Origin: an uncultured Victivallales bacterium
GTDB lineage: Bacteria > Verrucomicrobiota > Lentisphaeria > Victivallales > UBA1829
Length of the DNA: 36,832 nucleotides
Direction: 5' to 3'
Assembly: GCA_964534535.1 (NCBI GenBank)
Contig: CAZHPP010000001.1
Span: 1 to 36,832, forward strand
The notes beneath the pieces were generated by a model that did no database searches, was not told the origin of the DNA, and saw nothing but the letters and a program-made list of their open reading frames with translations. A program made the position numbers and the translations under genes. Below are positions 11,376 to 27,573 of this stretch, piece after piece; the stretch's first letter is position 1, and the number at the start of each line of letters is the position of its first letter.

Positions 11376-11658
11376 TTCCGGAACTCAGTTCAGCTTCCAG
11401 CTTTTTGCGGGGACGCCGTCGAATTCGGAATCCGTGGTGTTCACGCGGATTCTGACTCCGTTTTCATAGGCTGTGTCGTAGAATCCGGGCACCGGCTCAT
11501 GGAACGAGTCGAACGGCACCGTCTGGAGCTTCAGCCTGTTGAAGCAGAGGTCGTAGGCGGGCTTCACCAGTTCGATGGATTTCCTGTAGTCGCCGCCGTT
11601 TCCGCCGTTGTTCCGGTATGAGACTTCCATGCACGGCCTCGCCCCGAACGCCAGCTCG
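11376..11658 (-). repeat. Copy A of a ~283-bp high-identity segment shared by the 3' ends of the two DUF5696-like paralogs
   Basis: Ungapped alignment to 19700-19982 at a constant offset of 8324. I count 21 mismatches in the 274 nt from the stop codon (about 92%), including a 62-nt identical run (11575-11636 = 19899-19960). Identity drops sharply upstream of 11658. Confidence 0.9.
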
Positions 11659-13226
11659 CGGAGCTGTTCCAGATGGACATCCTTGTAATGATGCACCCAA
11701 ATGTTCTGATAGAGGATCAGTCCATGAATGGCGGCATGGAAGAAAGGCACAGAATACGGATCAAGTCTGCGGAAGTTTTCAGGCGCCAGATTGTACCGAT
11801 CCGAATTTTTCTCCGGACAGAAGAGGTGTCCGCACTCGTCAATGAAGGGTAGAACGTAGGATGTAAGGTTTTCAATGGAGACCGCGCCGTAGAGGGCGCG
11901 CGGAATCTCCGTGATTGACGCCAGAGCCAGGGCAAACTGCTTTTCATCGGCGGGGTGGTTCGGTGAATCGCAGCGGAAAAGCGGGGTGGACTGGGAGTCA
12001 AGATAATAATGCCCGTTGAATCCGAGTTCGCGAATGCGCTGGAATTCATATCCGGAACGGCGGATGTAGGCGGTCGGACAGGATCTGTAAGTGAATCCGC
12101 CGCAGAGCAGAGAGCCGCCAACGGGACCTCCGCCTGGAACCCTTGCGGCCAGGGATTCGAATTCCGGGGTATTGGCGCGGATGTCTGTGGCGTTGTCGTG
12201 CGGGACGATTTGATATCCCAGCGCCGCTGCGTGCTGAATCAGGTGTTTCAGGGCCTCTTCGCCGCCGATGGAGGGTTCCACAGGGAAGTGAACGGGATAT
12301 GCACCGTCGTGTCCGCCGAGGTTCCAGCCGACCAGGGTGACGACGGACCGTTCGATGCCGGATTTTTTCATGGTGTCGAGAATCTCCTCCGCTTCCCGGC
12401 AGGAGGTATGCACAACAACGGGGGAAGCACCGTCAAAAGAGGGCTTCTTGTCCGCCATGAAAATCTTGATCCGCAGCGCGTCCGCCGAATAGTTCAAGAC
12501 GGGATTGTTCTCCGCGCGTTCTGCAAGACGGCCGACGCCGCGGTCCTGAAGATGTTTTCGGTAGAGGACGGCGAAGGCTCCATAGTCGGCCCGCCCGGGA
12601 ATTCTGTGATACGAAATGCACCGGTCCTCGGTCGAAACGGAATCGTACGGATTCCTGCGGAAAACAAACTCTCCATAAAGTGAATTGATGCCGTTTCGGT
12701 TGAATTCCGAACGGACATAGCAGTTAAAGTCGCCCGATTCGACAATCGCCAGAGTATTCCGTCCGTCCTGCAGAAGGCCATAACAGTTGAATATGGACGG
12801 CTTCTCCCAATCCCGCTGCTCCGTATAAATCCGTTCGGAATCCGCGGAATGTTCCCTCGGTCTGAAATCAACGAGGACTCCGCTCCAGACGGGAAGAAGA
12901 TAAGCCCCGTCCGCGCCGACTTTTGTGTTCATGTATCCCGGCAGGACGCCGATCCGCATGACCCTCCAAAGTGGAGTTTCCTCCGCAATGGTTCCGCCGC
13001 GGAGGAGAATGCGGAATCCCGTTTCGAACTCTTGAATTTCCACCGGTATTGTGAGTCCGTGAAGGTCGGAACGAAGTAAAATTTTACATACGGTTCCCGA
13101 GCGGTAATCCAGCACCTTCCTGAAATCGGTTAGAAGGATTGTCCGCTCGCAAAGAGTATTGTAAAGTTCAACGGACAGAAATTTGCTGAAAGGCATATCG
13201 TCGGGAAGCAGATCGTTTTGGAACAT
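11385..13226 (-). CDS. DUF5696-like protein, putative TIM-barrel glycoside-hydrolase-like, no signal peptide (613 aa; cassette 1, gene 5)
   Basis: ATG at 13226 (MFQNDLL...) with GAGGAAAA upstream. It is a paralog of 19709-21565. Conserved blocks are VTLVGWNLGGHDGAYP, YQIVPHDN and GHYYLDSQS. The family name is from memory and needs an HMM check. The ORF-track start at 13346 adds 40 poorly coding residues. Confidence 0.75.
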   Translation of the reverse strand: MFQNDLLPDDMPFSKFLSVELYNTLCERTILLTDFRKVLDYRSGTVCKILLRSDLHGLTIPVEIQEFETGFRILLRGGTIAEETPLWRVMRIGVLPGYMNTKVGADGAYLLPVWSGVLVDFRPREHSADSERIYTEQRDWEKPSIFNCYGLLQDGRNTLAIVESGDFNCYVRSEFNRNGINSLYGEFVFRRNPYDSVSTEDRCISYHRIPGRADYGAFAVLYRKHLQDRGVGRLAERAENNPVLNYSADALRIKIFMADKKPSFDGASPVVVHTSCREAEEILDTMKKSGIERSVVTLVGWNLGGHDGAYPVHFPVEPSIGGEEALKHLIQHAAALGYQIVPHDNATDIRANTPEFESLAARVPGGGPVGGSLLCGGFTYRSCPTAYIRRSGYEFQRIRELGFNGHYYLDSQSTPLFRCDSPNHPADEKQFALALASITEIPRALYGAVSIENLTSYVLPFIDECGHLFCPEKNSDRYNLAPENFRRLDPYSVPFFHAAIHGLILYQNIWVHHYKDVHLEQLRELAFGARPCMEVSYRNNGGNGGDYRKSIELVKPAYDLCFNRLKLQTVPFDSFHEPVPGFYDTAYENGVRIRVNTTDSEFDGVPAKSWKLN

Positions 13227-13318
13227 GTTTTTTCCTCTATTTATACGCTTTCCGGACTGAAAAGCCGCAACCGCAAACATGCGGGACTTGCACTTTCTCA
13301 TCATAGAAAGCGTACTGT

Positions 13319-13350
13319 GCCCGTGAAAGACGCCGAATGCGCGCACGGGC
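13319..13350 (-). other. Hairpin in the LamG/DUF5696 spacer of cassette 1 (GCCCGTG-18 nt-CACGGGC)
   Basis: 7-bp perfect stem, 8 nt downstream (minus sense) of the LamG stop at 13359. It lies in a 132-nt gap that is absent from cassette 2, where the equivalent genes overlap. Confidence 0.3.
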
Positions 13351-13358
13351 GGATAAAA

Positions 13359-14141
13359 TTATTTCAGATGGGCCGTCTGAACGGTCGCATCATACAGTTT
13401 TTTGATTTCGCCGTCGGAGAGAGCGCGGTTTAGAATGGTGACTTCATCCACCATGACCCGATAATTCTTCTCCTCTACACCGATCTGAAGCACGGTCATT
13501 TCCCCGCGAAAAATTTTATCCTGGGCGGCGGAGGTGCTTTTCGAACCGTTGACGGATGCGGCAAAATTACCGGAATTCCAAGTTACTGCGATCATTTTCC
13601 ATTCTCCGTTTTTCCAAAGGGAGGCGCGTGCCCTGCCGTAGATCAGGCATTCCATCGGCTTATTCTTTTCCACGTAGTATTGAATGTAGGTGTTGAAGTG
13701 TCCCTGACCCCACTGTTGTCCGCGTATTTTTGAGATGACGAGCGAATAGTCGTAATCCGGTGTACGGGCGCTGCAGAGCATCGCATAGAATCCGGGTTCG
13801 ATGCCGTCCGCCGGCTTTTTCTCCGGCCAGTTCAGGGGACACAGCCAGAGAATGATGGTGCCGGGGCGCAAGAGGTCGGCGTTCTTTTTCGCGTCGAATT
13901 TGATTGTTCCGCGAGCGAGCCCCTTTCCAAAGAGCCCGTTTTCCGCGATGACAGCCCTGGAGACGTCGTTCAGCGGAGCGGATTTTCCGGACGCCAGATC
14001 GGCTTCACACGTTCCGTTGTCGAAGTTCAATGCGAATGTGATGTCCTTTGAGAACATCTTATAAACCGGATTTTCCGGAGCCGCGTCCAGAATCACGCCG
14101 GCGAGAAACGCCGCGAGAAATAGAATCGTCTTTTGCATCAT
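13359..14141 (-). CDS. Secreted LamG/concanavalin-A-like lectin-fold protein (260 aa; cassette 1, gene 4)
   Basis: Signal peptide MMQKTILFLAAFLAGVILDAAP. The tail ...EWKMIAVTWNSG...VNG...VDEVTILNRALSDGEIKKLY is the typical Laminin_G_3 ending. Its start abuts the upstream stop (14142-14144). It is a paralog of 21562-22305. Confidence 0.8.
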   Translation of the reverse strand: MMQKTILFLAAFLAGVILDAAPENPVYKMFSKDITFALNFDNGTCEADLASGKSAPLNDVSRAVIAENGLFGKGLARGTIKFDAKKNADLLRPGTIILWLCPLNWPEKKPADGIEPGFYAMLCSARTPDYDYSLVISKIRGQQWGQGHFNTYIQYYVEKNKPMECLIYGRARASLWKNGEWKMIAVTWNSGNFAASVNGSKSTSAAQDKIFRGEMTVLQIGVEEKNYRVMVDEVTILNRALSDGEIKKLYDATVQTAHLK

Positions 14142-17100
14142 TCAGTTGCCTTTCAGTTTAATGAAGATAAAGTCGTATTTTTTCAGAGGGAAGGAGATGG
14201 CACCGCCGCGCACGGCGAGCGAGGAACCATTTTCCCCGTTGACGGCTGAAAGAATTTTCATGCCGTCAATCCGTACCGACGGTTCCGCATCGTTTCCGTA
14301 ATTGCAGACGACCAGCAGGGCATTCCGTCCCTTTCGAAGGAGAATTGAACTCGTATCGCCGCCGGAAACATGGACGGGATAGTCCTTGTCCCAATAATTG
14401 CGGACTTCGACTCCGTCGGTTCCGTAGCCGAAACGATAGAATTCGAGCAGAATGGAATTGTATACTTTCGAAAACTGGGATCCCTTGCACCACTGCGTCT
14501 CGTGCGTCAGAGCGACTCCAGTCCCGGTTCTCATGCAGAACGCGACCGCATCCCTGGCGTCGTCCATCTTGACGAGGCCGATGACGACCGGAAGATTGCC
14601 GAACTGACGTCCCAGCGACACGGCACGGATGTATTCCCGCGTATAACGTTTCTGAAACGGAGAGGTTCCGAGGTGATCCTCCCAGTCAAGATTCTGCTGG
14701 GCGAAGGCGAGGAGCGGCGCGGCCGCGACATTGGTCATGTGGGCTGTGTTGTTGGGGAGGCGGTTCATCTCCAGCTGCATGACCGCCCCGCGGCGGATCA
14801 TTTCGCGCATGTTGAAGAATCCTGTGGATGGCTGGATTTCACCATTGGAAAGAAGGTAGGTGTCTCCTGTGCCGCTGCGGTCATAATTCGGACTGGGAAA
14901 AACATTGTCCCAGTACAGATTATCGCAGGCTCCGGATTCGAGCATCTTTTTATTCCAGTATATCGCGTAATCCCGGTAGCTCTTCACCGGATCGACACTG
15001 TAGGGGAGACTGGCACTGTATTCCGGTTCCCGGTCGCGCGAAGGCTGGAACTCTTCCTTAAACCAGTCGTCCAGAAAGGTTTTCGATTCCGCGATATCCA
15101 GCCTCTGTCCGCGGAGATTGGTATAGAATGTCACACTGCCGGGGACCGATTTTTTCGCAGTGTTGAACCCGTAGTTCAGTTCATTCCGGAACATGGTCTC
15201 CCAATTCGGACTCGGAAAACGGCTGTAGCCCTTGAGCCATTCTTTCAGGAATTTTTCCGGAATGACCTTTGTTTTCCGGGTTTCCGCGAGTTCCCGCCAG
15301 ATGGAAAGGTCGTAATCCCGGGGATGCAGACTGCTGCCTATTCCGCCCTCGCAGTAGCTGCTTCCGTACCACGAAATCCAGTAGTCCAGATACGGTTTAA
15401 GCGCCTCGGCGGCATCCCAGGCCGCGAAGCGCCTGCGCCAGTGCGGAGGCATAGGTTTCACCGGAGTCGCCTGGAATCCGAGTGTGATCACGCGCGGCGC
15501 GTTCAATACCACGGGTTCCGCAAAAAGATTCAGCGTCAGGACGACTTTCCCTTTTTCACGGACGAGGGACTGCGCCGGGACGTCTTTCGATACGCTCCAG
15601 TTCCTGTCATTTTCTCCGAAAACCGAAAGCCCGCGTCCTTCCGTCCCCAACCAGAGATAGGGACACCAGCTGGTGCGTAAACTGAACTTGGGCGCTTCAA
15701 TCGAGTTCCAACGCGCAGGTGTTCTTCCGCCATAGTTCTGGCGCAGTCCGTCAGCACACGCATGAAACAGATACGCGTTTTTTTCGTCCATGGGGATCCT
15801 GAGTTCCAGGGCGTCCGCACGGACGCCGTTCCCCTCGAATTCGAGTTCGCACTTCATCATGCCGTCATAGTCGTACCGGAAGCGGGTACGGCCCTTCAGC
15901 GGTCCGCAGGACCAGTCCGCGCGCCCTTCGACCGCGGTTTCAGTGCATCTTGTAAAACGGACTCCTTCGCCGCGGACGCGGAAGGTTTCACCTCCGATTT
16001 TCGCAGCGAGCGTTATGCCGCCGTCAAGCAGAAGGGGTTCTCCTTCGGCTGTCACCTGCCTCCAGAGTCCGGCGGGGCTCATTTCGTGTTCCCTGAGTAT
16101 CGTTGAGACGCGGAAGCCGTCGACCTTGATCGCGGTGAACGGAGGGATCAGAATATCACTCATTCCGATCCGGTTGTCCTCCCATGCAAAGAGTTTCCGT
16201 TCAAATTTTTTGATGATTTTTTCCCCGCCGGCCATCACTTCCAGACGATATTCTCCGGAAGGATTGCGTTTCCGGGTATACTCCCTCAGATCCGGGAGCC
16301 GGAGAAGAAGTTCGGATTGTCCGTTTCGCAAGGCGGGAAAAACGCCGGAAACAAGTTTTTCCCCGTTTTTTCCGAAGACTTCCGCTGCGGGCAGCGGCTC
16401 CTTTTCCGGATGTTCGAGAGCAGAGAGATCCAGCCTGCAGAAAAGTCGGTTCGAAGATGGATAGAATGCGAATTTCAAAGAAATTTTTTCAACCGTCGAT
16501 CCTGTTTTTTCGAAGACCTTCCGGCGGGTTGTGTCCCATGTGAAGACGCGTCGCCAGAAGATGTCCTTTTCGTCTTCCGATGCGACCTCGAAAAAAAGTC
16601 GCGCGGTTTCCCCCGGAGTCAGTTGCGGAACCGGGAGATTCATCTTTTTCTCTTCTCCCGTTCCCAGTTCCAGCACGGTCTTCGAGTCCACGGATTGAGA
16701 CGCGCTGGGATTCAGGGCGTACCGCACCCGCAGACGCACCGGAGCCCCCGGATTGAAAATGGAAGCCGCGGGTGCCGGTTTCCCGTCACGGGTCAGTTCC
16801 GTGAACCGAATTGAGGGGGCACCGGTACGGAAACGAATTCGCGGGATCGAATCGCATCCTTCGAACGAAACGGACCGGTGCGACCAGCAGCTTTGAGCCA
16901 GTCCGCTTTTGTCGTAATGTCTTGCGATCCGCTGCCAGTTTCTGCAGAATCTAAGACCGATCTCGCGTCCTTCAAGCGGTGGTGTCACTCCGAACTGTTC
17001 CAGAGGAAGCATGGTTTCCATGGTCCAGATCCCTTTTTCAACAGTTCCCTTGGACAGGAAGACCGGATTCCATACGACTCCTGTGCCGTTCTTCCGCGCG

Positions 17101-17543: not shown

Positions 17544-17649
17544 GCTGTCTTTGTCTTTCCTGTTGGTTATGAGGCGTTTCTTTGAATGAGAAGTCATTTG
17601 GGTTTTGGCGGTTCCGCCGCATAATACGCTCTTCGGAATGAAAAACGTA

Positions 17650-18420
17650 TTAATACACGGCGAACCACATCGGGCGTTTCCATGCGTCCGAATCGTTCCA
17701 GATGTTCTGAAAGGAGTTTCGAACTTGCGCGTCGCTTTCCGAGAGGGTGTGACCGTCCAGAAACAGGAAATTGATTTTCCCTGAATGCCTGGGAGCCCAC
17801 GCCGACGAATTTCCTCCATTTTCATAATATATTTTCAGTTCCGTGTATCCCCACGCATTCCCGTTCGCCGGATGGTAGAGGGCGGAATTCGTTCCTACAC
17901 CGTCTCCGCTGTAATGCAGAGAGGATGCTTTTTTGACACGACTCGTCTTTACGCTCGCTTTTACGTTCCATGCCTTGTGAAACGCGTAAATGGAAGCGCC
18001 GTTGGTTGCCGCATTGATTCCGATGTTGCAGTACCTTGTAAAAAGCGACAGATCCTTGTAATTTCCGCCGATTTTCCATGCGGGCGAGTCCGGACACATC
18101 CAGCACGTTGTGCTGCCGTTCAGGTAGTCGGCCAGCTTTCCAACCCAGTATTTCCGAGGCTCCTCCTTACCCCACTCGAAATCCACCCACATCGGCACAT
18201 GATCCCCGTTGTCTCCGCTGTAGAACATCACGGCTTTCCCGACCTGGACGAGATTGCCGGAACACTGAACGCTCTTGGCCGCTTTCCGCGCCTTGTTCAA
18301 CGCGGGCAGCAGCATTCCCGCCAGGATCGCGATGATTGCTATTACAACCAGAAGTTCTATCAGTGTGAAAAATAAACACTGATGTTCCGCGGCAAACCTT
18401 GTTTTTTCTTTCATCTTCAT
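17650..18420 (-). CDS. Prepilin-type N-terminal domain protein, DUF1559 / H-X9-DG family pseudopilin-like (256 aa; cassette 1, gene 2)
   Basis: ATG at 18420 with AAAGGA upstream. It contains [32 protein letters not shown] (class-III signal-like with Glu+5). The C-terminal [12 protein letters not shown] equals H-X9-DG. Confidence 0.85.
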
Positions 18421-18497
18421 TCCTTTATGTTTGGGAACCTGACCGATTCCATGTTTTAAGTCCTTCCGGTGAATCTGCCGATGGAAACACATCTATT

Positions 18498-19481
18498 TCA
18501 GTCTGCCTGTCTGCGAATGAACTCCGGACGGTAATACTCCACGCCGGACTGGTGAGCAAACGCCATTTTCCAGAATCTGTTCCAGTCCCAATGCCAGGTC
18601 GAATATTCATGTCCGGACTGTTTCGAGTAGGACATGTCATACATTCCGACTTTGTCCATTGCGCCGGCAGCGGGGAAGAAGACCGAAACCTTCGCAAGCG
18701 TTTCCGAAAGCAGCATGTCAGACCTTGCAAAAATTGCACTCGGCGGATCTTTTCCGAAAATCCGGGCAACCCGCTCCGGATTCAGTTCCAGGTCCTGACG
18801 GCCGAACCATTGGAATTCCGGCGTGTCGAATTCCAGTCCGACCCGCCGCGCCGCTTCTTCCATCTGAAGACGCTTGAACTCCTTGATCTGATGTTCGTGG
18901 CTCAGAAACACTATTTTTTTGTGTCCGCGGTCCAGAAAATACCGGAGTGTCTGCTCCGTAATATAAATCCAATCCGAAAGCACAGCTGAATCCGGCTTTG
19001 CTTCCGGCCATTCGAACCGATGGAAAAACACCGTGTTCATCCCCATGGTCAGTTTCTGCAGAATCGGATACGGCATTTCAAATCCGTTCAGATCGGCAAA
19101 TACCAGAAGCGGTGCTTTTTCGAGCATGCTTTCAACAGAGCGCCGTGACGGCAGGGAAATCATTGTCACACAGTTCGCTTCCGCCGATTCCATCATCAGC
19201 GATTCATAATAATTGTTCATTGTACCATACACCGTCGAGGTGATCAGCCCGCAAAGCGTTCCCTGCCGCAGAGCCTCCGGAATGAACAGACCTGACCGCG
19301 TACTCCGCTCAATCAGTCCCTGCTTTGCCAGAAGTCCGGATGCATCATAAAGAACCTTGGTGCTCACATTGAAACGCGCACTCAGCGCGCGCATCGACGG
19401 CAAACGTTCCCCTGACTTGAACTTTCCGGAACGAATTTCCCGCGCCAGGACTTCCGCAACCTGACTTGTTTTTGTCACCAT
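18498..19481 (-). CDS. AraR-architecture regulator: GntR-type winged HTH fused to a LacI/PBP1-like sugar-binding domain (327 aa; cassette 1, gene 1)
   Basis: The N-terminus VAEVLAREIRSGKFKSGERLPSMRALSARFNVSTKVLYDASGLLAKQGLIERSTRSGLFI is a GntR wHTH. About 250 further residues show an alternating beta-alpha pattern typical of periplasmic-binding-protein-like effector domains. Confidence 0.8.
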   Translation of the reverse strand: MVTKTSQVAEVLAREIRSGKFKSGERLPSMRALSARFNVSTKVLYDASGLLAKQGLIERSTRSGLFIPEALRQGTLCGLITSTVYGTMNNYYESLMMESAEANCVTMISLPSRRSVESMLEKAPLLVFADLNGFEMPYPILQKLTMGMNTVFFHRFEWPEAKPDSAVLSDWIYITEQTLRYFLDRGHKKIVFLSHEHQIKEFKRLQMEEAARRVGLEFDTPEFQWFGRQDLELNPERVARIFGKDPPSAIFARSDMLLSETLAKVSVFFPAAGAMDKVGMYDMSYSKQSGHEYSTWHWDWNRFWKMAFAHQSGVEYYRPEFIRRQAD

Positions 19482-19497: not shown

Positions 19498-19528
19498 TTT
19501 CTTCTGTTTCCAATCTGTTTCTTCTGTT
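19498..19528 (-). promoter_or_regulatory. Two 11-nt direct repeats (AACAGAAGAAA on the coding strand) spaced 20 bp apart in the leader of the cassette-1 regulator; candidate operator
   Basis: TTTCTTCTGTT occurs at 19498-19508 and 19518-19528 (plus strand). The promoter-proximal copy starts at the predicted transcription start of the promoter at 19535-19563. Confidence 0.4.
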
Positions 19529-19534
19529 ACCTTT

Positions 19535-19563
19535 ATTATACTGCATTCCCCGCGTTTTGTCAA
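19535..19563 (-). promoter_or_regulatory. Perfect consensus sigma70 promoter for cassette 1 (TTGACA-17 nt-TATAAT)
   Basis: On the minus strand the -35 TTGACA is the complement of 19558-19563 and the -10 TATAAT is the complement of 19535-19540, with a spacer of exactly 17 nt. An A/T-rich UP-like tract (AATATTTATTTTATTT) lies upstream, and the regulator ATG is about 48 nt downstream. Confidence 0.7.
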
Positions 19564-19699: not shown

Positions 19700-19982
19700 T
19701 TCCGGGACTCAGTTCAGCTTCCAGTCTTTTGCGGGAACGCCGTCGAATTCGGAATCCGTGGTGTTCACGCGGATCCGCACTCCGTTTTCATAGGCCGTGT
19801 CATAGAATCCGGGTACCGGTTCATGAAACGAGTCGAACGGCACTGTCTGGAGTTTCAATTTGTTGAAGCAGAGGTCGTAGGCGGGCTTTACCAGTTTAAT
19901 GGATTTCCTGTAGTCGCCGCCGTTTCCGCCGTTGTTCCGGTATGAGACTTCCATGCACGGGCGCGCCCCGAACGCCAGCTCG
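19700..19982 (-). repeat. Copy B of the ~283-bp high-identity 3' segment of the DUF5696-like paralogs
   Basis: See copy A (11376-11658): same offset, 21 mismatches in 274 nt counted by hand. Confidence 0.9.
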
Positions 19983-21565
19983 GTCAATTGACTGTGGCGG
20001 ACATCCCGGCAGCAGTTCACCCAGATCTGCTGATAGAGAATCAGTCCGTGAAGCGCAATGTGGAAGAACGGAACCGGGTGCAGCGAAAGCGGCTTCAGCA
20101 CGGCCGGCATGACATCCCGAAGGTACGGTTCTCCCGCGGGCGAATGGACCGCCGCCGCCTCGTCAATGTACGAAATGGAATATGCGCTCGGGCATTCGAT
20201 CGAAACGGCGCCGTACATCGACCGGGGCACTTCCGTGATCGCGGCCAGCGCCAGGGCAAATTCGCGTTCGTCCGCGGGATGCGCGGGACTGTCGCATCGC
20301 CAAAGCACGGTGGACTGGGCGTCCATGTAATAATGGCCTTTGAAGCCCAGCTTCCGGATGCGTTCGAATTCGGAGCCCCAGCGGCGGAGGAAGACCTGCG
20401 GGCACGCCTTGTACGACTGGCCGCCGCCCCAGACTCCTGCGGCAATCGGCTCGCCGGATTTCATCCGGGCGACATACTCGGGATCGAAATCGGGCGAGCC
20501 GCGGTAGATATCGGTGACGTTGTCGTGCGGGACGATCTGGTATCCGAGCCTGTCCGCGTGCGCGATCAGTCTGCGGAGTCCCGCTTCCCCGCCGAGGGCG
20601 GGTTCCACCGGGAAATGCGAAGGATACGCGCCGTCGTGTCCGCCGAGATTCCAGCCGACGAGCGTGATCACGGCGCGTCCGATTCCGGATTTCTTCATGG
20701 AATCGAGAATCTTTTCGGCCTCGGCGAAGGAGGTGTGGACCGTGACGGGAGACGACCCGTCCGGCACGAACGGCTCCTTGCCGGCCAGGAAAATCTTCGT
20801 GCGCATGGCATTGGCGGAATACCGGAGGACGGGATTCGCCTGCATCCTGTCCGTGAGGAAGCTTGCGCCGTGCTCCAGCAGGAAGGTGCGGTAGATTTTT
20901 GCGAAATCGCCGTAGCATGCCTTTCCCTGGAGACGGTGGAACGCGACCGTGCGGTCCTCCGCGGAAACCATGTCCGAAGGATCGTTCCGGAAGATGAAGT
21001 TTGCGCAGAGCGAATTGATTCCATCCCGGTTGAATTCGGATTCGACCCGGCAGTTGAAATCGCCGGATTCGACCACGGCGAAAAAGTTATTGTCCTTCTG
21101 CAGGAGTCCGAAGCAGTTCAGCATGGAGAACTTTTCCCATTCGCGCTGCTCCATGTAGATGCGGTCCGAGTTCCGGCAGTGTTCGCGTTTCCGGAAGTCC
21201 GCGAGCGCGCCGGACCACACGGGCAGAAAATATGCGCCTTCGGAGCCGACCTTCGTATTCAGGAGGTCGGGCAGCACGCGGAGGCTCATCAGGCGCCACC
21301 GGATGGAATTTTCCTCGGCGAGCGTGCCGCCGCAGATGCGGAACCGGAAGCCGTCCGGCAGGTCGAGCCATTCGGCCGTGAGGACGATTCCGAAGCGGTC
21401 CGAACGCAGGAGCATGCGTTTCCCGGCCGGGGTTCTGAATTCGAGCGCGGTGCGGAAATCATCCGCAAAGACCGGTCTCTGTTCCGCAATATCGTAAAGT
21501 CCTGCGGAAACAAGCGTCTTGAGGTTCATGGAATAATCTTTCTCTGCGGCGGTTCTGCGGTTCAT
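19709..21565 (-). CDS. DUF5696-like protein, putative TIM-barrel glycoside-hydrolase-like, no signal peptide (618 aa; cassette 2, gene 5)
   Basis: ATG at 21565 overlaps the LamG stop (21562-21564) by 4 nt. It shares the blocks ITLVGWNLGGHDGAYP, YQIVPHDN and GHYYMDAQS with 11385-13226. Confidence 0.8.
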   Translation of the reverse strand: MNRRTAAEKDYSMNLKTLVSAGLYDIAEQRPVFADDFRTALEFRTPAGKRMLLRSDRFGIVLTAEWLDLPDGFRFRICGGTLAEENSIRWRLMSLRVLPDLLNTKVGSEGAYFLPVWSGALADFRKREHCRNSDRIYMEQREWEKFSMLNCFGLLQKDNNFFAVVESGDFNCRVESEFNRDGINSLCANFIFRNDPSDMVSAEDRTVAFHRLQGKACYGDFAKIYRTFLLEHGASFLTDRMQANPVLRYSANAMRTKIFLAGKEPFVPDGSSPVTVHTSFAEAEKILDSMKKSGIGRAVITLVGWNLGGHDGAYPSHFPVEPALGGEAGLRRLIAHADRLGYQIVPHDNVTDIYRGSPDFDPEYVARMKSGEPIAAGVWGGGQSYKACPQVFLRRWGSEFERIRKLGFKGHYYMDAQSTVLWRCDSPAHPADEREFALALAAITEVPRSMYGAVSIECPSAYSISYIDEAAAVHSPAGEPYLRDVMPAVLKPLSLHPVPFFHIALHGLILYQQIWVNCCRDVRHSQLTELAFGARPCMEVSYRNNGGNGGDYRKSIKLVKPAYDLCFNKLKLQTVPFDSFHEPVPGFYDTAYENGVRIRVNTTDSEFDGVPAKDWKLN

Positions 21566-22305
21566 TTTTTCGGAAGCGCTTTCATGGTTTCAGCATAAAC
21601 TTTTGCAATTTCATCGTCGGAAAGACGGCGCCTGAGGACGATAACCTCGTCGACGAGCATGTCGCCTTCCGTATTGACAAAGAACATCTTCACAGGGAGC
21701 TTGAGCGGGGACTTCAGTTCAGCCTGTTCGGATTTTTTCCCGTTGATGGAATTCGTGATGGAACCTGCGCCCCAGGTCACGGCAAGCATCCGCCATTCGC
21801 CGTTCGGCCACTTTGCGGCATTGGCGGCGCCGTAAATGACGCAGCTCTTTGCGCCGCCGCGTCCGGCATCGTACTGGATATAGGTGTTGAGGTGGCCCTG
21901 GCCCCACGGCTGGCCGCCCATCTTTCCCACGATCATTTCATAGCCGTCCGCCATGGTGTGGAACACCGTGAACCCGGGATCGGTCTTGGCGGGAGCGGTG
22001 GTCCCTTTCCGCGGGGCGGTCCAGCGCAGCAGCGTGCCGGGAACGGTCATGTCGATGTTCTTTTCTCCCTTGTAGAGGGGATTCCCGTTCGCAAGGGCTT
22101 TCCCGAAGAGTCCGGCAGGGAATTCGGCCTTGCCGCCGATCCGGAGCGGTTCGGCTTCGCCGGACGCCATGTCCGCATTGCAGGTGCCGTCATCGAAGTT
22201 TGCCGAAAAGAGAATGTCCTTTGCGAACATTTTATAGGCCGGGTTTTCCTGTGCCGGGAGCAGTGCGGCGGCGCAGAGGGCGGCGAGAGCGAGAGTTTTC
22301 TTCAT
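21562..22305 (-). CDS. Secreted LamG/concanavalin-A-like lectin-fold protein (247 aa; cassette 2, gene 4)
   Basis: Signal peptide MKKTLALAALCAAALLPAQ. ENPAYKMFAKDILFSANFDDGTCNADMASGE parallels cassette 1. The C-terminal EWRMLAVTW...VDEVIVLRRRLSDDEIAKVY is present. The gene starts 3 nt after the upstream stop. Confidence 0.8.
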   Translation of the reverse strand: MKKTLALAALCAAALLPAQENPAYKMFAKDILFSANFDDGTCNADMASGEAEPLRIGGKAEFPAGLFGKALANGNPLYKGEKNIDMTVPGTLLRWTAPRKGTTAPAKTDPGFTVFHTMADGYEMIVGKMGGQPWGQGHLNTYIQYDAGRGGAKSCVIYGAANAAKWPNGEWRMLAVTWGAGSITNSINGKKSEQAELKSPLKLPVKMFFVNTEGDMLVDEVIVLRRRLSDDEIAKVYAETMKALPKK

Positions 22306-22308
22306 GAT

Positions 22309-25300
22309 TCAGTTTCCTTTCACTTTGATGAAGATGAAGTCATATTTTTTTAGCTGAAAATTGACCTTGTTCCCGGAAATTTCGAGCGGCATTCCGGTTT
22401 CGCCGTTCACGGCCGAAACGAGGTTCATTCCACGGATTCCGGCGGTGAAGGAGGAATCATCGCAATAGCTGCAGACGACCAGATACGCTTCCTTTCCCTT
22501 TTCGAGAAGAATGGAAGAGGTGTCGCCGCCCGTCACAGTCACGGGGTAATCCTTCTCCCAGTAGTCGCGGACTTTCACGCGGCTGTCGTCGCCGTAGCCG
22601 AACTGATAGAACTTGAGCAGGACATTGCAGTAGCCTTTGGACTGGCCGCCGCGGATCCACTGGATTTCATGGGTGAGCGCGACTCCGGCGCCCGTGCGGA
22701 AGCACCATTCGACGGCAGCCTTTCCGCCGTTGCCGTTGACGAGTCCGAGCGCCGCCGGAAGATTCCCGAACTGGCGTCCGATCGAGACCGCGCGGATATA
22801 CTCTTTCGTGTAGCGCTGCTGGAAGGGATTCGTGCCCAGATTGTCTTCCCAGTCGAGGTTCTGCTGCGCGAAGGCGCAGATGGGGGGCATGGCGGCATTG
22901 GTGATATGGACCATGTTGTTCGGTTTGCGGCCGAGTTCGAGCTGGAGCACGGCCGTGCGCCGGATCAGTTCCCTCAGGTTGAAGAGTCCCAGGGAGGGCT
23001 GGAGCTTTCCGTCTTCGGAATAATAGACCGGTTCGGAGCCGCTGCGGTCATAGTTGGAGGCAAGGAAGACGTCGTCCCAGTAGATGTTGTCGCACGCGCC
23101 GGTTTCGAGCATTTTCTTGTAGCAGGTCATGGCGAAGTCGCGGTAGCTGGAAGTCGGGTCGACGCTGTAGGCCTTGCTTGCGCCGAAGGCCGGAGCGCGG
23201 CCGCGGGACCCCTGGAATTCCTCCCGGAACCAGTTGTCGAGGAAGGTCCGGGCTTCCGGAATGTCGATCCGCTGGCCGCGCGCATTCGTGTAGAACGTGA
23301 CCGAATCCGGCTTCGCATTCATGGCCGTATAGAGCCCGTAATTGATTTCAGCACGGTAGGTTTCCAGTTTGTTCGGGGAATCCTTGGGATAACCGGCAAG
23401 CCACTGATCCAGGAAGCCTTCCGGGATCTTGTGCGTCTTCCGGATCTGGCTGTACATTTTCCACAGCGAAAGGTCGTTCCCGCGCGGCAGAAGGTCGTCG
23501 GAGGCCGAGATTCCGCCTTCGCAGAGAGAACTGCCGTAGAACGTGATCGCATAATCCGTATAGGGATGAATTCTGCCGTCAAGTCCCCACGACGCCTGAT
23601 GCTTCCGCCAGTTTTTGATCATCGGCTTGACGGGAGTCGCCTGGAACGCGAGCGTAATCGTGCGCAGCTGTTCAAGCTTCACTGGCTTTGCAAAGAGGTT
23701 GAAGACCAGTTCGACTTTCCCGTTTCCGCGCCTGATCGTCTGGGCGGGAACTTTCTCCGCGACTGTCCAGCCGCGGTCGTTTTCGCCGTAGACGCTGAAG
23801 CCGCGGCCCTCGGTTCCAAGCCAGAGATACGGCACGAAGGAGGTCTGGAGGTCGGTGCGCGCCGCCTGGCTCGAGTCCCATTTCACGGGAGTCGCACCAC
23901 CGTAGTTGAAGCGGAGCCCGTCCGCGCTTTCATGGAACAGATACGCATTCTTCTCGTCAAGCGGGACCACGAGCCGGAAGGAGTCGGCCTTCGAGCCGGC
24001 GTTCACCGTGAGATTGAACTTCATCATGCCGTCGTATTCGAACCGGAAATCGGTTTTCCCGGAAATCACGCCGGGAACGGACCACGAAGCGGAACCTTCC
24101 GCCGCGGTCCCGCTCTTCTTTGTGAATTTCACTCCGGAACCCTTGACGGTGTACGTTTTTCCGCCCGCTTCCGCGACGAGCTTCATGCCGCCGTCGACGA
24201 ACAGAGTTTCGCCGTCGGCCTTCACCTGCTTCCAGAGCCCGGTGTCCGCCAGCTCATGCGTGCGGAGAATCATGGAAACTTCATTGCCATTGACCGCGAC
24301 CGGCGTGAACGGCGGGATCAGCCGGTCGCTCATGCCGAGGGAATTGCCTTCCCAGCCGAAGACTTTGCGCTCGAACGTCCGGGTAAGTTTGTCGCTGCCG
24401 ACCGTCACTGTGAGCGTATATTCGCCGGAAGGATTCTTTTCTTCCGTGAATTTCTTCAGGGAGGGCAGCTGCCAGAGCGTTTCCGAAACGCTGCTGCGGA
24501 ATGGTTTGAGGACGGTTTCCGCAACTTTTCCGCCGGTTTTTCCCGCGACTTCGGCCTTCAGGACTTTGATGGAATCCGCATTGGGAACCGCGCTCGCGTC
24601 CAGCTGAAGGAACAGGCGGCCGGTTTCCGCATAGAAGGCATACTTGAGGGAAAGTTTTTCCGCTTCGGAAGCCTCTTTTTCGAACACGTCGGCCTTTTCC
24701 TTTTTCCAGCGGAAGGCCCTGTGATAGAGAACGGCGCCGTCCGGATTCAGGACCCTGAACGCGGCAGAAGCTGTTTCGTTTTCAGAGAGCTGGGCCACGG
24801 GCAGGGTCAGAATCTTTGTTTCGCCCGGAGCAAGCGCAGCTTCGGATTCGTCGCTGACCGACTGGGAACGGTCCGGCTTCAGGAACCAGACCGTCTTCAC
24901 CTTCACCGGGGCGGCGGAAGGATTGTAAACGCTGACCTTCACGTCGGGTTTTCCTTCCGACACGAGACTCAGGAAGCGCACGACAGGGCCGTTCTCCCGG
25001 AGCGTGGCGCGCGGAATGTTGTCGCTTTCGAAGAAGGCGCCGCGGATCTGGCTCCAGCAGCTTTGGACTCCCCACTCGCCGAACTCCTTTGCCAGACTGT
25101 GCCAGTTGCGGCAGATCCTCAGTCCGAGCGTCCCGCCGTCCTTCCAGTCCGCAATCCCGAACTGGGAAAGCGGAAACGCGATTTCATACGTCCATCTGCC
25201 GTCCTTCACCACGCCCTTTGATTCGAAGACGGGGTCCCATGCGGCATTGGCGCCGCGGATGCGGGCCTCAGACATGTACGAACCTTTGTTGTTCACAATG

Positions 25301-25713
25301 ACGTGATAGATGTCCGGCATTTTTGAATCGGGATGCGGCACGATCACGAATTCGAAGGAATCGTCCATGAAGGCTTTCATGCCGCCGCGGCCCTTCCGGG
25401 CGCGTTCGAGGATTCCGCCTTTTCCGGTTTCGCACTGGATTCCGAGATAGAGACTTTTGCCGTCGGTGCCGATCTGGAAGCGGGATTCCGGATCGAAGAA
25501 CTGCATCATGTCGAGGTTGGGCATGAGTCGGCAGAAGCCGAACATCCCGGCGGAGTTCTTCATTTCCTCTTCCGAGAATTCCCCGTCAATGCGGAATTCC
25601 TTCATCTTTGCGAGCGACGCCGAGGGCGGCTCCGTAAAAAGTTTCTCTCCCGCTGCGAATGCGGAAATTCCGGCAAGACAGAGCCCCGCCGCAGCTGCGA
25701 TCGTTCGATTCAT
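22309..25713 (-). CDS. Large secreted protein with a CBM9-like N-terminal module and an uncharacterised C-terminal region (1,134 aa; cassette 2, gene 3)
   Basis: GGAAGGA lies 6 nt upstream of the ATG. Signal peptide MNRTIAAAAGLCLAGISAFAAG. The CBM9-like block is DDSFEFVIVPHPDS...IYHVIVNNKG...AWDPVF...GRWTYEIAFPLSQFG. The conserved C-terminal blocks PYLWLGTEGRGFSV, CDNIYWDDVF, QQNLDWEDNLGT and YDFIFIKVKGN are shared with 14142-17543. Confidence 0.85.
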   Translation of the reverse strand: MNRTIAAAAGLCLAGISAFAAGEKLFTEPPSASLAKMKEFRIDGEFSEEEMKNSAGMFGFCRLMPNLDMMQFFDPESRFQIGTDGKSLYLGIQCETGKGGILERARKGRGGMKAFMDDSFEFVIVPHPDSKMPDIYHVIVNNKGSYMSEARIRGANAAWDPVFESKGVVKDGRWTYEIAFPLSQFGIADWKDGGTLGLRICRNWHSLAKEFGEWGVQSCWSQIRGAFFESDNIPRATLRENGPVVRFLSLVSEGKPDVKVSVYNPSAAPVKVKTVWFLKPDRSQSVSDESEAALAPGETKILTLPVAQLSENETASAAFRVLNPDGAVLYHRAFRWKKEKADVFEKEASEAEKLSLKYAFYAETGRLFLQLDASAVPNADSIKVLKAEVAGKTGGKVAETVLKPFRSSVSETLWQLPSLKKFTEEKNPSGEYTLTVTVGSDKLTRTFERKVFGWEGNSLGMSDRLIPPFTPVAVNGNEVSMILRTHELADTGLWKQVKADGETLFVDGGMKLVAEAGGKTYTVKGSGVKFTKKSGTAAEGSASWSVPGVISGKTDFRFEYDGMMKFNLTVNAGSKADSFRLVVPLDEKNAYLFHESADGLRFNYGGATPVKWDSSQAARTDLQTSFVPYLWLGTEGRGFSVYGENDRGWTVAEKVPAQTIRRGNGKVELVFNLFAKPVKLEQLRTITLAFQATPVKPMIKNWRKHQASWGLDGRIHPYTDYAITFYGSSLCEGGISASDDLLPRGNDLSLWKMYSQIRKTHKIPEGFLDQWLAGYPKDSPNKLETYRAEINYGLYTAMNAKPDSVTFYTNARGQRIDIPEARTFLDNWFREEFQGSRGRAPAFGASKAYSVDPTSSYRDFAMTCYKKMLETGACDNIYWDDVFLASNYDRSGSEPVYYSEDGKLQPSLGLFNLRELIRRTAVLQLELGRKPNNMVHITNAAMPPICAFAQQNLDWEDNLGTNPFQQRYTKEYIRAVSIGRQFGNLPAALGLVNGNGGKAAVEWCFRTGAGVALTHEIQWIRGGQSKGYCNVLLKFYQFGYGDDSRVKVRDYWEKDYPVTVTGGDTSSILLEKGKEAYLVVCSYCDDSSFTAGIRGMNLVSAVNGETGMPLEISGNKVNFQLKKYDFIFIKVKGN

Positions 25714-25744
25714 TTTCTATCCTTCCGTAAGTTAGTGCAGAAAT

Positions 25745-26395
25745 TCAAATTCCGGTGTCACTGTCAAGCCAGGGCGCATCCGAATCCTTGAGCATGCGCA
25801 AAGCGCTTTCCTTCGGGCTTTGGACGTGTCCGTCAATGTAAAGGACGACCCCGGTGAAGCCGTTGTGCCGCCCCTTGAACGTGGCATTGGTGCTGTCCCG
25901 CAGACAGAAATACGGGCTGACCTCGCCAGGCGTAGTGGAACCGCATTCAAAAATGTAGCCCTTGGACGAGGGATTCTTGAACTTTCCGAGTCTGGCCTTG
26001 GGAACCGGAGATGCGTCATAACATCCGGCGATCCCGTAGGCAAAGATGCCGCAGGTGACTCCGCCGCCATAATAACTGAAGGTTTCATCGGCGGTCATGG
26101 CGGGACATTTCAGAAGCTCGATCCAGAGATTTTCCGTGATGGAAAGTTTCGGTCCGTACCATTGCGCCCAGGTTTCATATCCGACCCGGTGCGGGGCGAT
26201 CAGGTCGTCATAATTTCCCGCATAGAACATGATCTGCTGGCCGACCTGCTTTTTGTTCCCGGCACATTTGATTCCCTTGGCGGCCTGTCTTGCGCTGTTC
26301 AGCGCGGGGAGCAGCATTCCGGCGAGAATCGCGATGATTGCAATTACCACCAGAAGCTCGATCAGTGTGAAAAATCTTCTCCGGAAACTCAGCAT
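25745..26395 (-). CDS. Prepilin-type N-terminal domain protein, DUF1559-like pseudopilin-like (216 aa; cassette 2, gene 2)
   Basis: The N-terminus is [40 protein letters not shown]. The C-terminal [13 protein letters not shown] is H-X10-DG, one residue longer than the canonical spacing. The gene starts 25 nt after the regulator stop. Confidence 0.85.
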
Positions 26396-26420
26396 TTTCG
26401 TACTCCTTTATTTTATATCC

Positions 26421-27503
26421 TTATGAACGGGAAATCCGGCTGTCGTCAAAACAGCGCAGAAAACGTTCTTCAAGTTTCACGAACACCTGCCGCAGCGGCA
26501 CGGAAGGATTCTGCATGGCTTCCTTCAGAAGCAGGACCGCCGCATGCGCAATCTCCTCAATGCTCATTTCCAGAATGTCGGCCGGGACCGGAAGATACAG
26601 CGGATATTCCTTGGCCGAAAGCACGACCGGATGCGGCAGATACCCGAGACCGTTCCTTTGCACCAGCGTGCTGTAAATCCCGCGTGCGACCATGTCGTCC
26701 GGAATCAGCAGAGAGTCCGGACGCTGTTTCTCCGGAATCTTCAGGAGTTTCTCCGCCGTCTGCTCTGCAACAAGAAAACTCGGCGAAGAGATCACGGAAC
26801 CATTGCCGGCCAGGTCAAGGAACAGTTTCGCGGCGGAATCCGTTTCGAAGCCTCCCGGACACAAAAACGCGGGGTGCCGGAACCCCAGCTCCGCAAGCCG
26901 CTTTGTTCCGAGCCGGGCCAGAGACTCCATCGAAACGGTCACGGAATTCATGCCCCGCTCCTGCAGAAAACCGCCGACAAGACAAAATGGAATGCCGCGG
27001 CGGTTCAGCTCGTTCATGTTCTCCGGGGAAAGCGCCATCTGAACGATAAGGCCATCGAATTCCCCGCGTTCCAGACACTGCTTCACGCCGGCATGGGCCT
27101 TGAACCCGTCCTCCAGATATGTGTTTGTGCCGACCCTGTAACGACCGGGAAACATCCGGCAGACGCACCCGTTTGCGGCAAACTCCGTCTGGATATAGAC
27201 GGAAAGGAACGAGTTGAAAGGGCTGGTTTCGCGGCGGCCGATCAGCAGCGCGGTGCGGTATCCGGCATGGCCGGGAGTCTTCGGGTCGTTCACGAAAATG
27301 CCGACCTTGTCCTTTGCGGCGAGCACGCCTTCGGACTGCAGCTGCTTCACGGCGTTGAACACCGTGGCCGCCCCGAGATTCAATGCCTTGGAAATGGCGG
27401 AACACGACGGCAGACGGTCCCCCGGCTTCAGCCGGTGATCCCAGATGTAGCGGACGATCATCCGCTGTGCAAGAATTGTCTTTTTCCCGATGCCGTCTGT
27501 CAT
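26421..27503 (-). CDS. AraR-architecture regulator: GntR-type winged HTH fused to a LacI/PBP1-like sugar-binding domain (360 aa; cassette 2, gene 1)
   Basis: The N-terminus RMIVRYIWDHRLKPGDRLPSCSAISKALNLGAATVFNAVKQLQSEGVLAAKDKVGIFV is a GntR wHTH. The C-terminal ~280 aa contain LacI-type blocks (FDGLIVQ, IPFCLVG, DSLLIPDDMVARGIY). Confidence 0.8.
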   Translation of the reverse strand: MTDGIGKKTILAQRMIVRYIWDHRLKPGDRLPSCSAISKALNLGAATVFNAVKQLQSEGVLAAKDKVGIFVNDPKTPGHAGYRTALLIGRRETSPFNSFLSVYIQTEFAANGCVCRMFPGRYRVGTNTYLEDGFKAHAGVKQCLERGEFDGLIVQMALSPENMNELNRRGIPFCLVGGFLQERGMNSVTVSMESLARLGTKRLAELGFRHPAFLCPGGFETDSAAKLFLDLAGNGSVISSPSFLVAEQTAEKLLKIPEKQRPDSLLIPDDMVARGIYSTLVQRNGLGYLPHPVVLSAKEYPLYLPVPADILEMSIEEIAHAAVLLLKEAMQNPSVPLRQVFVKLEERFLRCFDDSRISRS

Positions 27504-27518
27504 TTTTGAAAAATTCCC

Positions 27519-27542
27519 ATGTATTCAGAATTCCGAATACAT
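27519..27542. promoter_or_regulatory. 24-nt near-perfect palindrome ATGTATTCaGAATTCcGAATACAT; candidate operator of the cassette-2 regulator
   Basis: It is self-complementary except for one symmetric mismatch pair. It begins 2 nt downstream of the -10 hexamer, so it covers the predicted transcription start, and ends 16 nt before the regulator ATG (27503). Confidence 0.55.
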
Positions 27543-27544
27543 AT

Positions 27545-27573
27545 ATTATAGCACAGAAGGGAAAATTTGTCAA
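27545..27573 (-). promoter_or_regulatory. Perfect consensus sigma70 promoter for cassette 2 (TTGACA-17 nt-TATAAT)
   Basis: On the minus strand the -35 TTGACA is the complement of 27568-27573 and the -10 TATAAT is the complement of 27545-27550, with a spacer of exactly 17 nt. An A/T-rich tract (AAAAAAGATTTTT) lies upstream of the -35. Confidence 0.7.

Follow-up and report, generated by a model that had tools for sequence, protein, structure and literature searches.

Here, we analyzed a 36,832-nt stretch of DNA from an uncultured Victivallales bacterium, called the window below, which is a complete contig of 36.8 kb. Its minus strand carries ten open reading frames (ORFs) that form two consecutive five-gene sets of identical order, each consisting of a sugar-sensing regulator (reg), a pilin-like protein (pil), a large exported protein (big, gene 3), a LamG protein (lam, gene 4), and a DUF5696 protein (duf, gene 5). 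We put at about 70% the probability that the two sets are copies of a glycan-utilization operon conserved in Lentisphaeria-type bacteria, lying side by side, each with its own promoter and its own repressor.

Each five-gene set follows a single strong promoter

An initial annotation, made from the sequence alone, had described two sets of five genes in the same order, and all ten ORFs were found on the minus strand at the coordinates in Table 1. Its account of the junctions also held: lam1 and big1 abut at 14141/14142, a 3-nt gap separates lam2 from big2 at 22305/22309, and lam2 and duf2 overlap in an ATGA at 21562-21565. The junctions of cassette 2 overlap or measure at most 31 nt, and cassette 1 has three longer gaps of ~77, ~106, and ~132 nt. 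When 17.6 kb (11000-28600) was scanned for promoters, two sites matched the sigma-70 consensus at 12 of 12 positions, one upstream of each regulator, where the initial annotation had placed the only strong promoters. By these junctions, with a single strong promoter per set, each set looks like one operon controlled by the AraR-type sugar repressor that it encodes. The stretch from duf2 to the promoter of cassette 1 showed no terminator-like site, so that transcription may continue from cassette 2 into cassette 1.

The alignments of the big pair and the duf pair gave E = 0 each, which excludes a chance likeness of the cassettes. Identity between the copies was 53% for big, 43% for lam, and 61% for duf, close to the earlier estimate that members 2-5 are roughly half identical; the estimate failed for the pilin-like pair, whose alignment (67% identity) was limited to 67 N-terminal residues and did not extend to the globular parts. 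Pfam and NCBIfam searches returned GntR, N_methyl with DUF1559 and H-X9-DG, Laminin_G_3, and DUF5696, and Rfam and tRNA scans of the window gave no matches. As first noted, no transporter, prepilin peptidase, or gene for pilus or type II secretion system (T2SS) assembly, including an assembly ATPase and a platform protein, was found in the cassettes or in the annotatable part of the contig, of which the first ~5.9 kb matched no family.

Regulators and operator-like repeats

Both regulators scored above the Pfam cut-off for GntR, and reg2 by itself matched Peripla_BP_3 weakly (E = 1e-3), with 19.6 bits against a cut-off of 26.5. A family profile built without reg1 and reg2 recovered the C-terminal effector domains of both (E = 9e-54 for reg1 and 4e-14 for reg2), and the profile that includes them matched PurR/CcpA/LacI (1e-48) and the effector domain of AraR (3tb6, 7e-32). 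Thus, judged from these profiles, the architecture of both regulators is AraR-like, with a GntR winged helix-turn-helix (wHTH) joined to a LacI/PBP1-type effector domain, in agreement with the initial annotation. The similarity of reg1 to reg2 is confined to the HTH region (28% over 64 aa).

Operator-like sites lie immediately past the -10 element of each promoter (Table 1), and comparable sites accompany related regulators at loci from other genomes (numbered L001 and upward). The reg2-type regulator of L009 has a different perfect palindrome, TGTTCCAA-TT-TTGGAACA, at the equivalent upstream position. TAACAGA repeats with a spacing of ~10 bp, some of them degenerate, follow a strong promoter-like site before the reg1-type regulators of L001, L005, L008, L013, L019, and L031. 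Autoregulation would be the natural reading of this arrangement of regulator and operator.

The locus type recurs in other genomes

A scan with a DUF5696 profile, taking one genome per species, yielded 61 loci, mainly from metagenome-assembled genomes (MAGs) of Lentisphaeria/Victivallales, with some from Planctomycetota and Kiritimatiellia. The five families, whose co-occurrence beyond this contig the initial annotation had left to be surveyed, proved to be co-localized in other genomes: the full reg-pil-big-lam-duf order is present at L005/L006, L009, L019, and L031 (at least three other MAGs), and variants of the cassette at L001, L008, L010, L038, and L068. More distant DUF5696 genes (39-45% identity) occur in two arrangements, either reg, pil, another large exported protein, and duf, or reg, duf, pil, lam, and genes of glycoside hydrolase (GH) family GH71; those of Kiritimatiellia (~30% identity) lack such an association. 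The neighbors of pilin-like genes at the DUF5696-centered loci encode GH42, GH5, GH35, GH71, GH39, BNR, and CBM9 proteins.

Six pil1 homologs were sampled from long contigs, chosen independently of DUF5696. All six lie directly upstream of genes for carbohydrate-active enzymes (CAZymes), and four of them directly after a GntR- or LacI-type PBP1 regulator. The products encoded 3′ of the six are, respectively, a big-family protein with LamG; AXE1 with GH106; two DUF4838+LamG proteins; GH78; a beta-helix protein with a true GH123; and GH38. This, together with the recurring gene order, places the cassettes of the window, by gene content, in a general Lentisphaeria glycan-utilization locus type. 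The linkage is not fixed, as the initial annotation had it, since genomes differ in which regulator-pilin head is joined to which enzyme body, and the pilin-like gene accompanies many different CAZyme genes.

In 10 of 12 related loci surveyed, no protein with at least five predicted transmembrane segments was found within 10 kb. The exceptions are L026, with one such ORF just upstream of the cassette, and the window, where such ORFs lie only >9 kb from the cassettes.

Two further loci deserve description. A variant tandem pair occupies a Hadza-gut contig (L001/L002, 10001-21380): its first set has big, a PHP-domain protein, and LamG with neither regulator nor pilin-like gene, and its second has reg, pil, big, and LamG, followed by a protein of >677 aa of no assigned family in the place of DUF5696. 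At L005 (3165-7348; also L006), two adjoining secretin-domain genes, with small ORFs of no assigned family on their flanks, stand directly upstream of the five-gene cassette, in this lineage only, and may be connected with the outer-membrane channel of a T2SS or pilus.

Gene 3 is probably a glycosidase

The longest ORF of big1 (14142-17825, 1227 aa) has 176 nt in common with the 3′ end of pil1, and its signal peptide begins at residue 96, so that translation probably starts at the ATG at 17540. Sequence and profile searches of big against the Protein Data Bank (PDB) matched no solved structure. The sole Pfam match was PF19543 (GH123_N), which covers the beta-sandwich at residues 450-639. A word-indexed homolog search had returned 11 matches, as if the family were rare; this was overturned by an exhaustive profile search, which found 6109 cluster representatives at E ≤ 1e-3 with a common core at positions 350-1140.

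An AlphaFold2 model of big2 residues 350-1134, computed from a 42-sequence alignment, reached a predicted local distance difference test (pLDDT) score of 95.3 and a predicted template modeling (TM) score of 0.94. It replaced a full-length model from 12 sequences (pLDDT 70.9, <50 in the barrel), whose Foldseek matches to LacZ (TM-score 0.14) were uninformative. In the predicted core, beta-sandwich domains precede a (beta/alpha)8 barrel, and a further beta-sandwich follows at the C-terminus, a three-domain architecture like that of clan GH-D and GH97 glycosidases. The best Foldseek matches were the GH36 A-antigen galactosaminidase of Flavonifractor plautii, GH36 alpha-galactosidases, a GH97 alpha-galactosidase, and a GH31 sulfoquinovosidase (9ayu, 4fnq, 2xn0, 5e1q, and 5oht; E from 9e-14 to 4e-9, TM-scores 0.35-0.46).

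An Asp/Glu/His/Arg set in the barrel is invariant across the 42 family members, some of which are just 25% identical. It includes D880, right after the strand 876-879 of the model, and E956, 76 residues on, after the strand 951-954. In clan GH-D (GH27, GH31, and GH36), barrel strands 4 and 6 carry the nucleophile and the acid/base at their ends, with a comparable spacing. We therefore regard D880 and E956 as candidate catalytic residues and gene 3, on the strength of the model, as probably an enzyme rather than a lectin, a predicted glycosidase of GH36/GH31/GH97 likeness.

An assignment of gene 3 to GH123 was rejected. GH123_cat (PF13320, formerly DUF4091) matched neither copy and none of the 42 relatives, and the genuine GH123 at L072 matched all three GH123 models. 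For the N-terminal module, big1 and big2 gave no match to CBM9 (PF06452), two of the 42 relatives matched weakly, and a paralog at L019 scored 25.0 bits over the homologous module (cut-off, 23.4). The CBM9-like label of this module is thus suggested only through the L019 paralog.

Gene 5 is probably a GH129/GH101-like enzyme

The resemblance of gene 5 to DUF5696, seen at the outset, was borne out by Pfam in both copies, and its lack of a signal peptide also held. No signal peptide was found in any DUF5696 family member checked, so that the enzyme would be cytoplasmic. Gene 5 matched the GH129 enzyme NagBb (5wzn) with E = 3.6e-13 as a single sequence and 5e-21 with a 26-sequence profile and, more distantly, the GH129-like 3,6-anhydro-D-galactosidase DagB (5opq) and GH101 endo-alpha-N-acetylgalactosaminidases. 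D435, a catalytic residue of NagBb (PMC5698469), aligns to D415 of gene 5 in a GHYYxDAQ motif, and D415 is invariant in the 26 sequences. The alignment covers residues 208-432 of gene 5 and stops at residue 450 of NagBb. Farther on, E457 is also invariant, and we take the acid/base of NagBb to stand at a spacing similar to that of E457 from D415. D415 is thus a candidate nucleophile and E457 a candidate acid/base, and gene 5, as a homolog of GH129/GH101 alpha-N-acetylgalactosaminidases, is probably an enzyme rather than a lectin.

The initial annotation had spoken of secreted lectin-like proteins, without a catalytic motif that could be placed in a characterized glycoside hydrolase family. This view was not supported, given the GH36/GH31/GH97-like core of gene 3 with its invariant Asp and Glu and the GH129/GH101 homology of gene 5.

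The LamG protein

Laminin_G_3 matched both copies of gene 4, above the Pfam cut-off in lam1 alone, in keeping with the earlier description of a LamG-fold protein with a Sec signal. A LamG profile searched against the PDB matched the C-terminal domain of the Geobacillus arabinanase 5hon (4.7e-15), and also the neuraminidase/sialidase A chain 4c1w, trans-sialidases, and clostridial toxin binding domains. From these matches, the LamG proteins are read as ConA-like carbohydrate-binding modules. Considering that the iterated LamG hidden Markov model had absorbed long multidomain proteins, fusions of LamG to enzymes were re-tested with Pfam. One polypeptide at L019 carries Laminin_G_3, CBM9_1, and GH123_N, a natural LamG-big fusion, which argues that LamG cooperates with the large enzyme.

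The pilin-like protein combines a conserved helix with a variable globular part

N_methyl (PF07963) and TIGR02532 matched both pil1 and pil2. The DUF1559 type with H-X9/10-DG, which had been assigned to both, was upheld for pil1, which scored 28.9 bits for DUF1559/SBP_bac_10 (PF07596; cut-off, 23.3) and 20.8 bits for TIGR04294 (cut-off, 19), and not for pil2, which fell below both cut-offs and whose H-X10-DG-H motif is recognized by eye only. Features of a pilin signal are present, namely a short basic leader, FTLIE with Glu at +5, and a hydrophobic helix of ~20 residues. The family alignment has an invariant N-terminal helix, two invariant Cys, a C-terminal RH..N.F.DGH, and a hypervariable middle. 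Searched against the PDB, the family profile matched PilA (6xxd, 5.5e-14) and GspG (5wda, 2e-6) through the alpha-1 helix alone. Over ~190-200 aa of the globular part, pil1 shares 38% identity with its ortholog in the L005 cassette and 32% with that in the L031 cassette.

The family is very large: the homolog search was saturated, with 7953 of 8000 candidates significant, and 48 copies lie within 0.93 Mb of related loci. Planctomycete genomes carry 68-74 paralogs each (PMC10632474, PMC2754498), and on DUF1559 the literature searched covers only such paralog counts and the label "solute binding protein family" (PMC2754498, PMC10632474). The solute-binding label of PF07596 is a database name only (PMC2754498), and the family goes unmentioned in a 2025 review of Planctomycetota. 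Taken from the alignments, the pilin-like protein is a fast-evolving globular part on a conserved helix, and by its gene neighbors it is a general companion of CAZyme operons in this group of bacteria.

History of the tandem pair

The enzyme body of cassette 2 is nearest to those of L005 and L019 (57% and 54% for big, 58% and 63% for duf). Its regulator is of the L009 type, with 46% identity over the full length, and no cassette in the comparison encodes a full-length relative of the globular part of pil2. By contrast with this head, reg1 and pil1 resemble the heads of L031 and L005. GC content is 0.54 in cassette 1 and 0.58 in cassette 2, and GC at third codon positions (GC3) is 0.60-0.66 in cassette 1, 0.67-0.77 in cassette 2, and 0.71-0.78 in most flanking genes. 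The lower values of cassette 1 suggest a different origin. Over the last ~270 nt, duf1 and duf2 share 87-97% DNA identity, against 48-81% over the remainder, indicating gene conversion or recombination between them.

The simple old tandem duplication proposed at first is therefore doubtful, as the GC3 of cassette 1 is atypical and each regulator is more closely related to regulators of other genomes than to its neighbor. A recent in situ tandem duplication as the sole history was also rejected, because the cassettes differ in GC3 and in the type of their regulator. Compared with a simple old duplication, the data are better fitted by head swapping or by the lateral gain of one of the cassettes.

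Table 1. Features of the two cassettes and their positions in the window
Feature	Coordinates	Strand	Description	Supporting match
Cassette 2	27503 down to 19709	minus	reg2, pil2, big2, lam2, duf2	
Promoter of cassette 2	27545..27573	minus	TTGACA-17-TATAAT with TG extension	12/12 consensus match
Operator-like site of cassette 2	27519..27542	minus	Near-perfect 24-bp palindrome, ATGTATTCgGAAT/ATTCtGAATACAT	Immediately past the -10 element
reg2	26421..27503	minus	GntR wHTH and LacI/PBP1-type effector domain, AraR architecture	GntR, E 7e-11
pil2	25745..26395	minus	Type-IV-pilin-like N-terminal helix, two conserved Cys, divergent globular part, H-X10-DG-H C-terminus	N_methyl, TIGR02532
big2	22309..25713	minus	Sec signal, CBM9-like module, Ig-like domains, predicted beta-sandwich/(beta/alpha)8/beta-sandwich core at ~450-1134	PF19543, E 1e-10
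lam2	21562..22305	minus	Sec-exported stand-alone LamG/ConA-like protein, predicted to bind carbohydrate	Laminin_G_3, below Pfam cut-off
duf2	19709..21565	minus	DUF5696, signal-less; putative glycosidase with GH129/GH101-like TIM barrel	DUF5696, E 1.5e-42; GH101, E 2e-4
Cassette 1	19481 down to 11385	minus	reg1, pil1, big1, lam1, duf1	
Promoter of cassette 1	19535..19563	minus	TTGACA-17-TATAAT	12/12 consensus match
Operator-like site of cassette 1	19498..19529	minus	Three AACAGA direct repeats, spacing 9 and 11 nt	Immediately past the -10 element
reg1	18498..19481	minus	GntR wHTH and PBP1-type effector domain	GntR, E 1.7e-13
pil1	17650..~18420	minus	Pilin-like DUF1559/H-X9-DG protein	SBP_bac_10, N_methyl, TIGR04294
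big1	14142..~17540	minus	Paralog of big2, 53% identity; probable ATG at 17540, giving MWKNSLMALIALCAWSG	
lam1	13359..14141	minus	Exported LamG protein	Laminin_G_3, E 6e-9, above Pfam cut-off
duf1	11385..~13226	minus	Putative DUF5696/GH129-like glycosidase, 61% identical to duf2; probable start MFQNDLL at 13226	DUF5696, E 4e-33
Gene-conversion tract	11385..11660	minus	3′ end of duf1	Matches duf2 at 19709-19985

Other genes of the window

No ORF at 1-5900 matched Pfam, NCBIfam, or PHROGs. The plus strand of this region is strongly T-rich, with an AT skew down to -0.19, and ORFs with 5-7 predicted transmembrane segments lie at 1129-2151 and 2046-2711. These ORFs may be unannotated membrane proteins beside GT4 and Mur-ligase genes. 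An AAA_14 and DUF4143 ATPase gene (5953-7164; GC 0.50, GC3 0.57) stands between the ORFs without a family match and the GT4 genes. Upstream of cassette 2, at 27732-36413, are genes for an exported 235-aa protein, whose start overlaps the stop of a ClpA-type ATPase gene in an ATGA, an XRE-cupin regulator, and a 1550-aa PAS/GAF hybrid histidine kinase. Nothing suggests that they are tied to the cassettes.

Proposed mechanism and alternatives

According to the above results, we propose the following course for each operon. The repressor would occupy the repeats until released by a sugar product. The exported large enzyme, aided by LamG, would trim an alpha-linked glycan outside the cytoplasm, and the product would be imported via a transporter encoded elsewhere. 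The cytoplasmic DUF5696 enzyme would then complete the cleavage and yield the inducer. The nearest characterized relatives of both enzymes hint at a substrate with alpha-linked galactose, galactosamine, or N-acetylgalactosamine, which we offer as a weak guess.

Several points weigh against this picture. For gene 3, the TM-scores of 0.35-0.46 apply over the entire core and are low, sequence identity to GH36 is ~11%, and the candidate residues D880 and E956 come from strand positions rather than from a residue-level superposition. For gene 5, E457 lies 42 residues past D415, outside the stretch that aligns to NagBb. The globular part of the pilin-like protein matched no relative of solved structure, solute-binding proteins included, in the profile search against the PDB. 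The canonical Gly at -1 of the prepilin cleavage site is replaced by Phe in pil1 and pil2 and is present in only 6 of 42 relatives from the fetched loci, so that prepilin processing and fiber assembly are uncertain; leaders are as short as MK or MKR (loci L001-L067), and processing by a prepilin peptidase may be atypical or absent. Of the genes immediately 3′ of pilin-like genes, ~21 of 29 encode signal-peptide-like N-termini, which fits a secretion-related role. Finally, no transporter partner was identified near the cassettes.

For the pilin-like protein, our preferred guess, and a tentative one, is extracytoplasmic glycan capture or hand-over, in the manner of a binding protein anchored in the membrane or of a pseudopilus subunit that binds substrate. 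A far wider proposal would make the DUF1559/H-X9-DG pilin-like proteins substrate-specific glycan-capture subunits, co-induced with their own enzymes and either anchored or built into a pseudopilus-like fiber, which would form the basis of polysaccharide binding and uptake in the Planctomycetes-Verrucomicrobia-Chlamydiae (PVC) group and a third general paradigm of glycan loci; in this generality we consider it doubtful.

The main rival to capture or hand-over would make the pilin-like protein a pseudopilin or adaptor with a cargo of its own, which would couple the large protein and LamG to a shared T2SS or retain them at the surface, close to the display idea of the initial annotation. The signal peptides downstream speak for it, as do the helix matches to GspG and PilA, the T2SS or GspH-family labels that relatives carry in public annotation, the reg-duf-pil-lam-GH71 variants, which place the pilin-like gene just ahead of the exported genes, and the two secretin genes upstream of the L005/L006 cassette. 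However, at L071 (GH78) and L073 (GH38), no enzyme encoded 3′ of the pilin-like gene has a signal peptide; with the pilin-like protein as the sole exported product there is no cargo, which argues against a purely cargo-specific secretion adaptor. Nor does variation in the globular part follow that in the enzyme: big2 and the L005 enzyme share 57% identity, whereas pil2 matches the L005 pilin-like protein over 63 residues only. The unconserved Gly at -1 also counts against it, and we know of no cargo-specific pseudopilins in the known T2SSs. We thus judge this rival rather unlikely and favor capture or hand-over.

It is very unlikely that genes 3-5 form a non-catalytic, lectin-like module that captures glycans without hydrolysis, a reading close to the initial annotation. 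LamG and the CBM9-like module are binding folds, and no Pfam catalytic-domain model matches gene 3, but the acidic and basic set of its barrel stays invariant down to 25% identity, its predicted fold matches active glycosidases, and DUF5696 retains the catalytic Asp of NagBb together with further invariant acidic residues. Least credible is an incidental adjacency of a hugely expanded, genome-scattered pilin-like family with no functional tie to the neighboring enzymes: the saturated search and the copy numbers in the related loci and in planctomycete genomes would allow it, but the gene is constantly second, 14-50 nt past the regulator, ahead of the enzymes and behind the single strong promoter, all six independently sampled homologs share this context, and pil1 orthologs travel with reg1-type regulators.

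Relation to known systems

The nearest known relatives are the AraR-controlled arabinan and arabinose operons of Bacillus subtilis. Like these, the cassettes pair a GntR wHTH with a LacI/PBP1 domain (3tb6, E = 7e-32), have an operator overlapping the promoter, and would place exported and cytoplasmic glycosidases under one sugar-responsive repressor. Unlike these, the cassettes open with the regulator gene and always include the pilin-like gene, they encode neither an ABC or MFS transporter nor a solute-binding protein, within the operon or close by, and their reg1-type operator consists of direct repeats rather than a palindrome. The SusC/SusD polysaccharide-utilization loci of Bacteroidota also co-regulate CAZymes and binding proteins for one glycan and have a non-enzymatic envelope gene as a hallmark. 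Here, this hallmark is the pilin-like protein, and there is no TonB-dependent transporter, SusD, hybrid two-component system, or ECF/anti-sigma regulator. In agreement with the initial view that the cassettes match neither SusC/D- nor ABC-type loci, genes for a TonB-dependent transporter or SusD were not found in the annotatable window, and neither were the permease and ATPase genes of an ABC-type locus.

Precedents for a pilin-type signal on a carbohydrate-binding protein exist by analogy only. In Sulfolobus, sugar-binding proteins have class III signal peptides and are assembled by Bas into the bindosome (PMC3047682), so that components of sugar uptake in the envelope carry a pilin-type N-terminus. 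Those archaeal proteins are true ABC solute-binding proteins of 400-600 aa encoded with permeases, whereas the globular part here has ~170-220 aa, no detectable similarity to solute-binding proteins, and no adjoining permease. In Planctomycetes, dextran binds pili-like fibers of unknown identity (PMC5394234).

With the T2SS pseudopilins GspG and GspH and with ComGC, the pilin-like protein shares the N-terminal FTLIE and hydrophobic helix; it also has two conserved Cys and a C-terminal DG. It differs from them in the unconserved Gly at -1, in a hypervariable globular domain unrelated by sequence, and in its setting, with one gene per CAZyme operon instead of a place in a gsp or com assembly cluster. 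The DG motif presumably resembles the Ca-binding end of GspG.

Gene 5 is like the GH129 NagBb, the GH101 EngBF, and the GH129-like DagB in sequence homology and in the conserved nucleophile, and unlike them in belonging to a separate Pfam family, DUF5696, in which residues 208-432 alone align. Gene 3 shares with the GH36 FpGalNase, alpha-galactosidases, GH31, and GH97 the predicted order of N-terminal sandwich, TIM barrel, and C-terminal sandwich, with acidic residues at two barrel strand ends. It differs from them in that it has no sequence-level match to solved structures and PF19543 as its only Pfam match.

Sugar-repressed glycosidase operons are a known kind. What is new here is that a pilin-like gene is always among the members, that no transporter is linked to them, and that two of the enzyme families are uncharacterized. 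No description of the regulator-pilin-CAZyme arrangement was found in the searchable literature, which leaves out many subscription journals, so that a prior account is possible, and nothing on DUF5696 was found in the literature searched.

Implications for Lentisphaeria and the PVC bacteria

Guts, rumens, digesters, and sediments all harbor abundant glycan degraders from the Lentisphaeria and related PVC groups, and the organization of their glycan use is poorly described. The cassettes supply a repeatable rule: a sugar-sensing repressor, a pilin-like protein, and enzymes, with no transporter. The DUF1559/H-X9-DG family thereby gains a concrete and testable context, in which each copy is tied to a regulator, an operator, and an enzyme set. 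DUF5696 and the PF19543-related family, with ~6100 cluster representatives, are flagged as probable glycosidases whose candidate catalytic residues can be named. If the capture-subunit reading of the pilin-like proteins is true, it would explain the tens to hundreds of paralogs per genome, and the combination of regulator, pilin-like protein, and CAZymes would stand as a third paradigm of glycan loci beside the SusC/D and the ABC solute-binding-protein loci.

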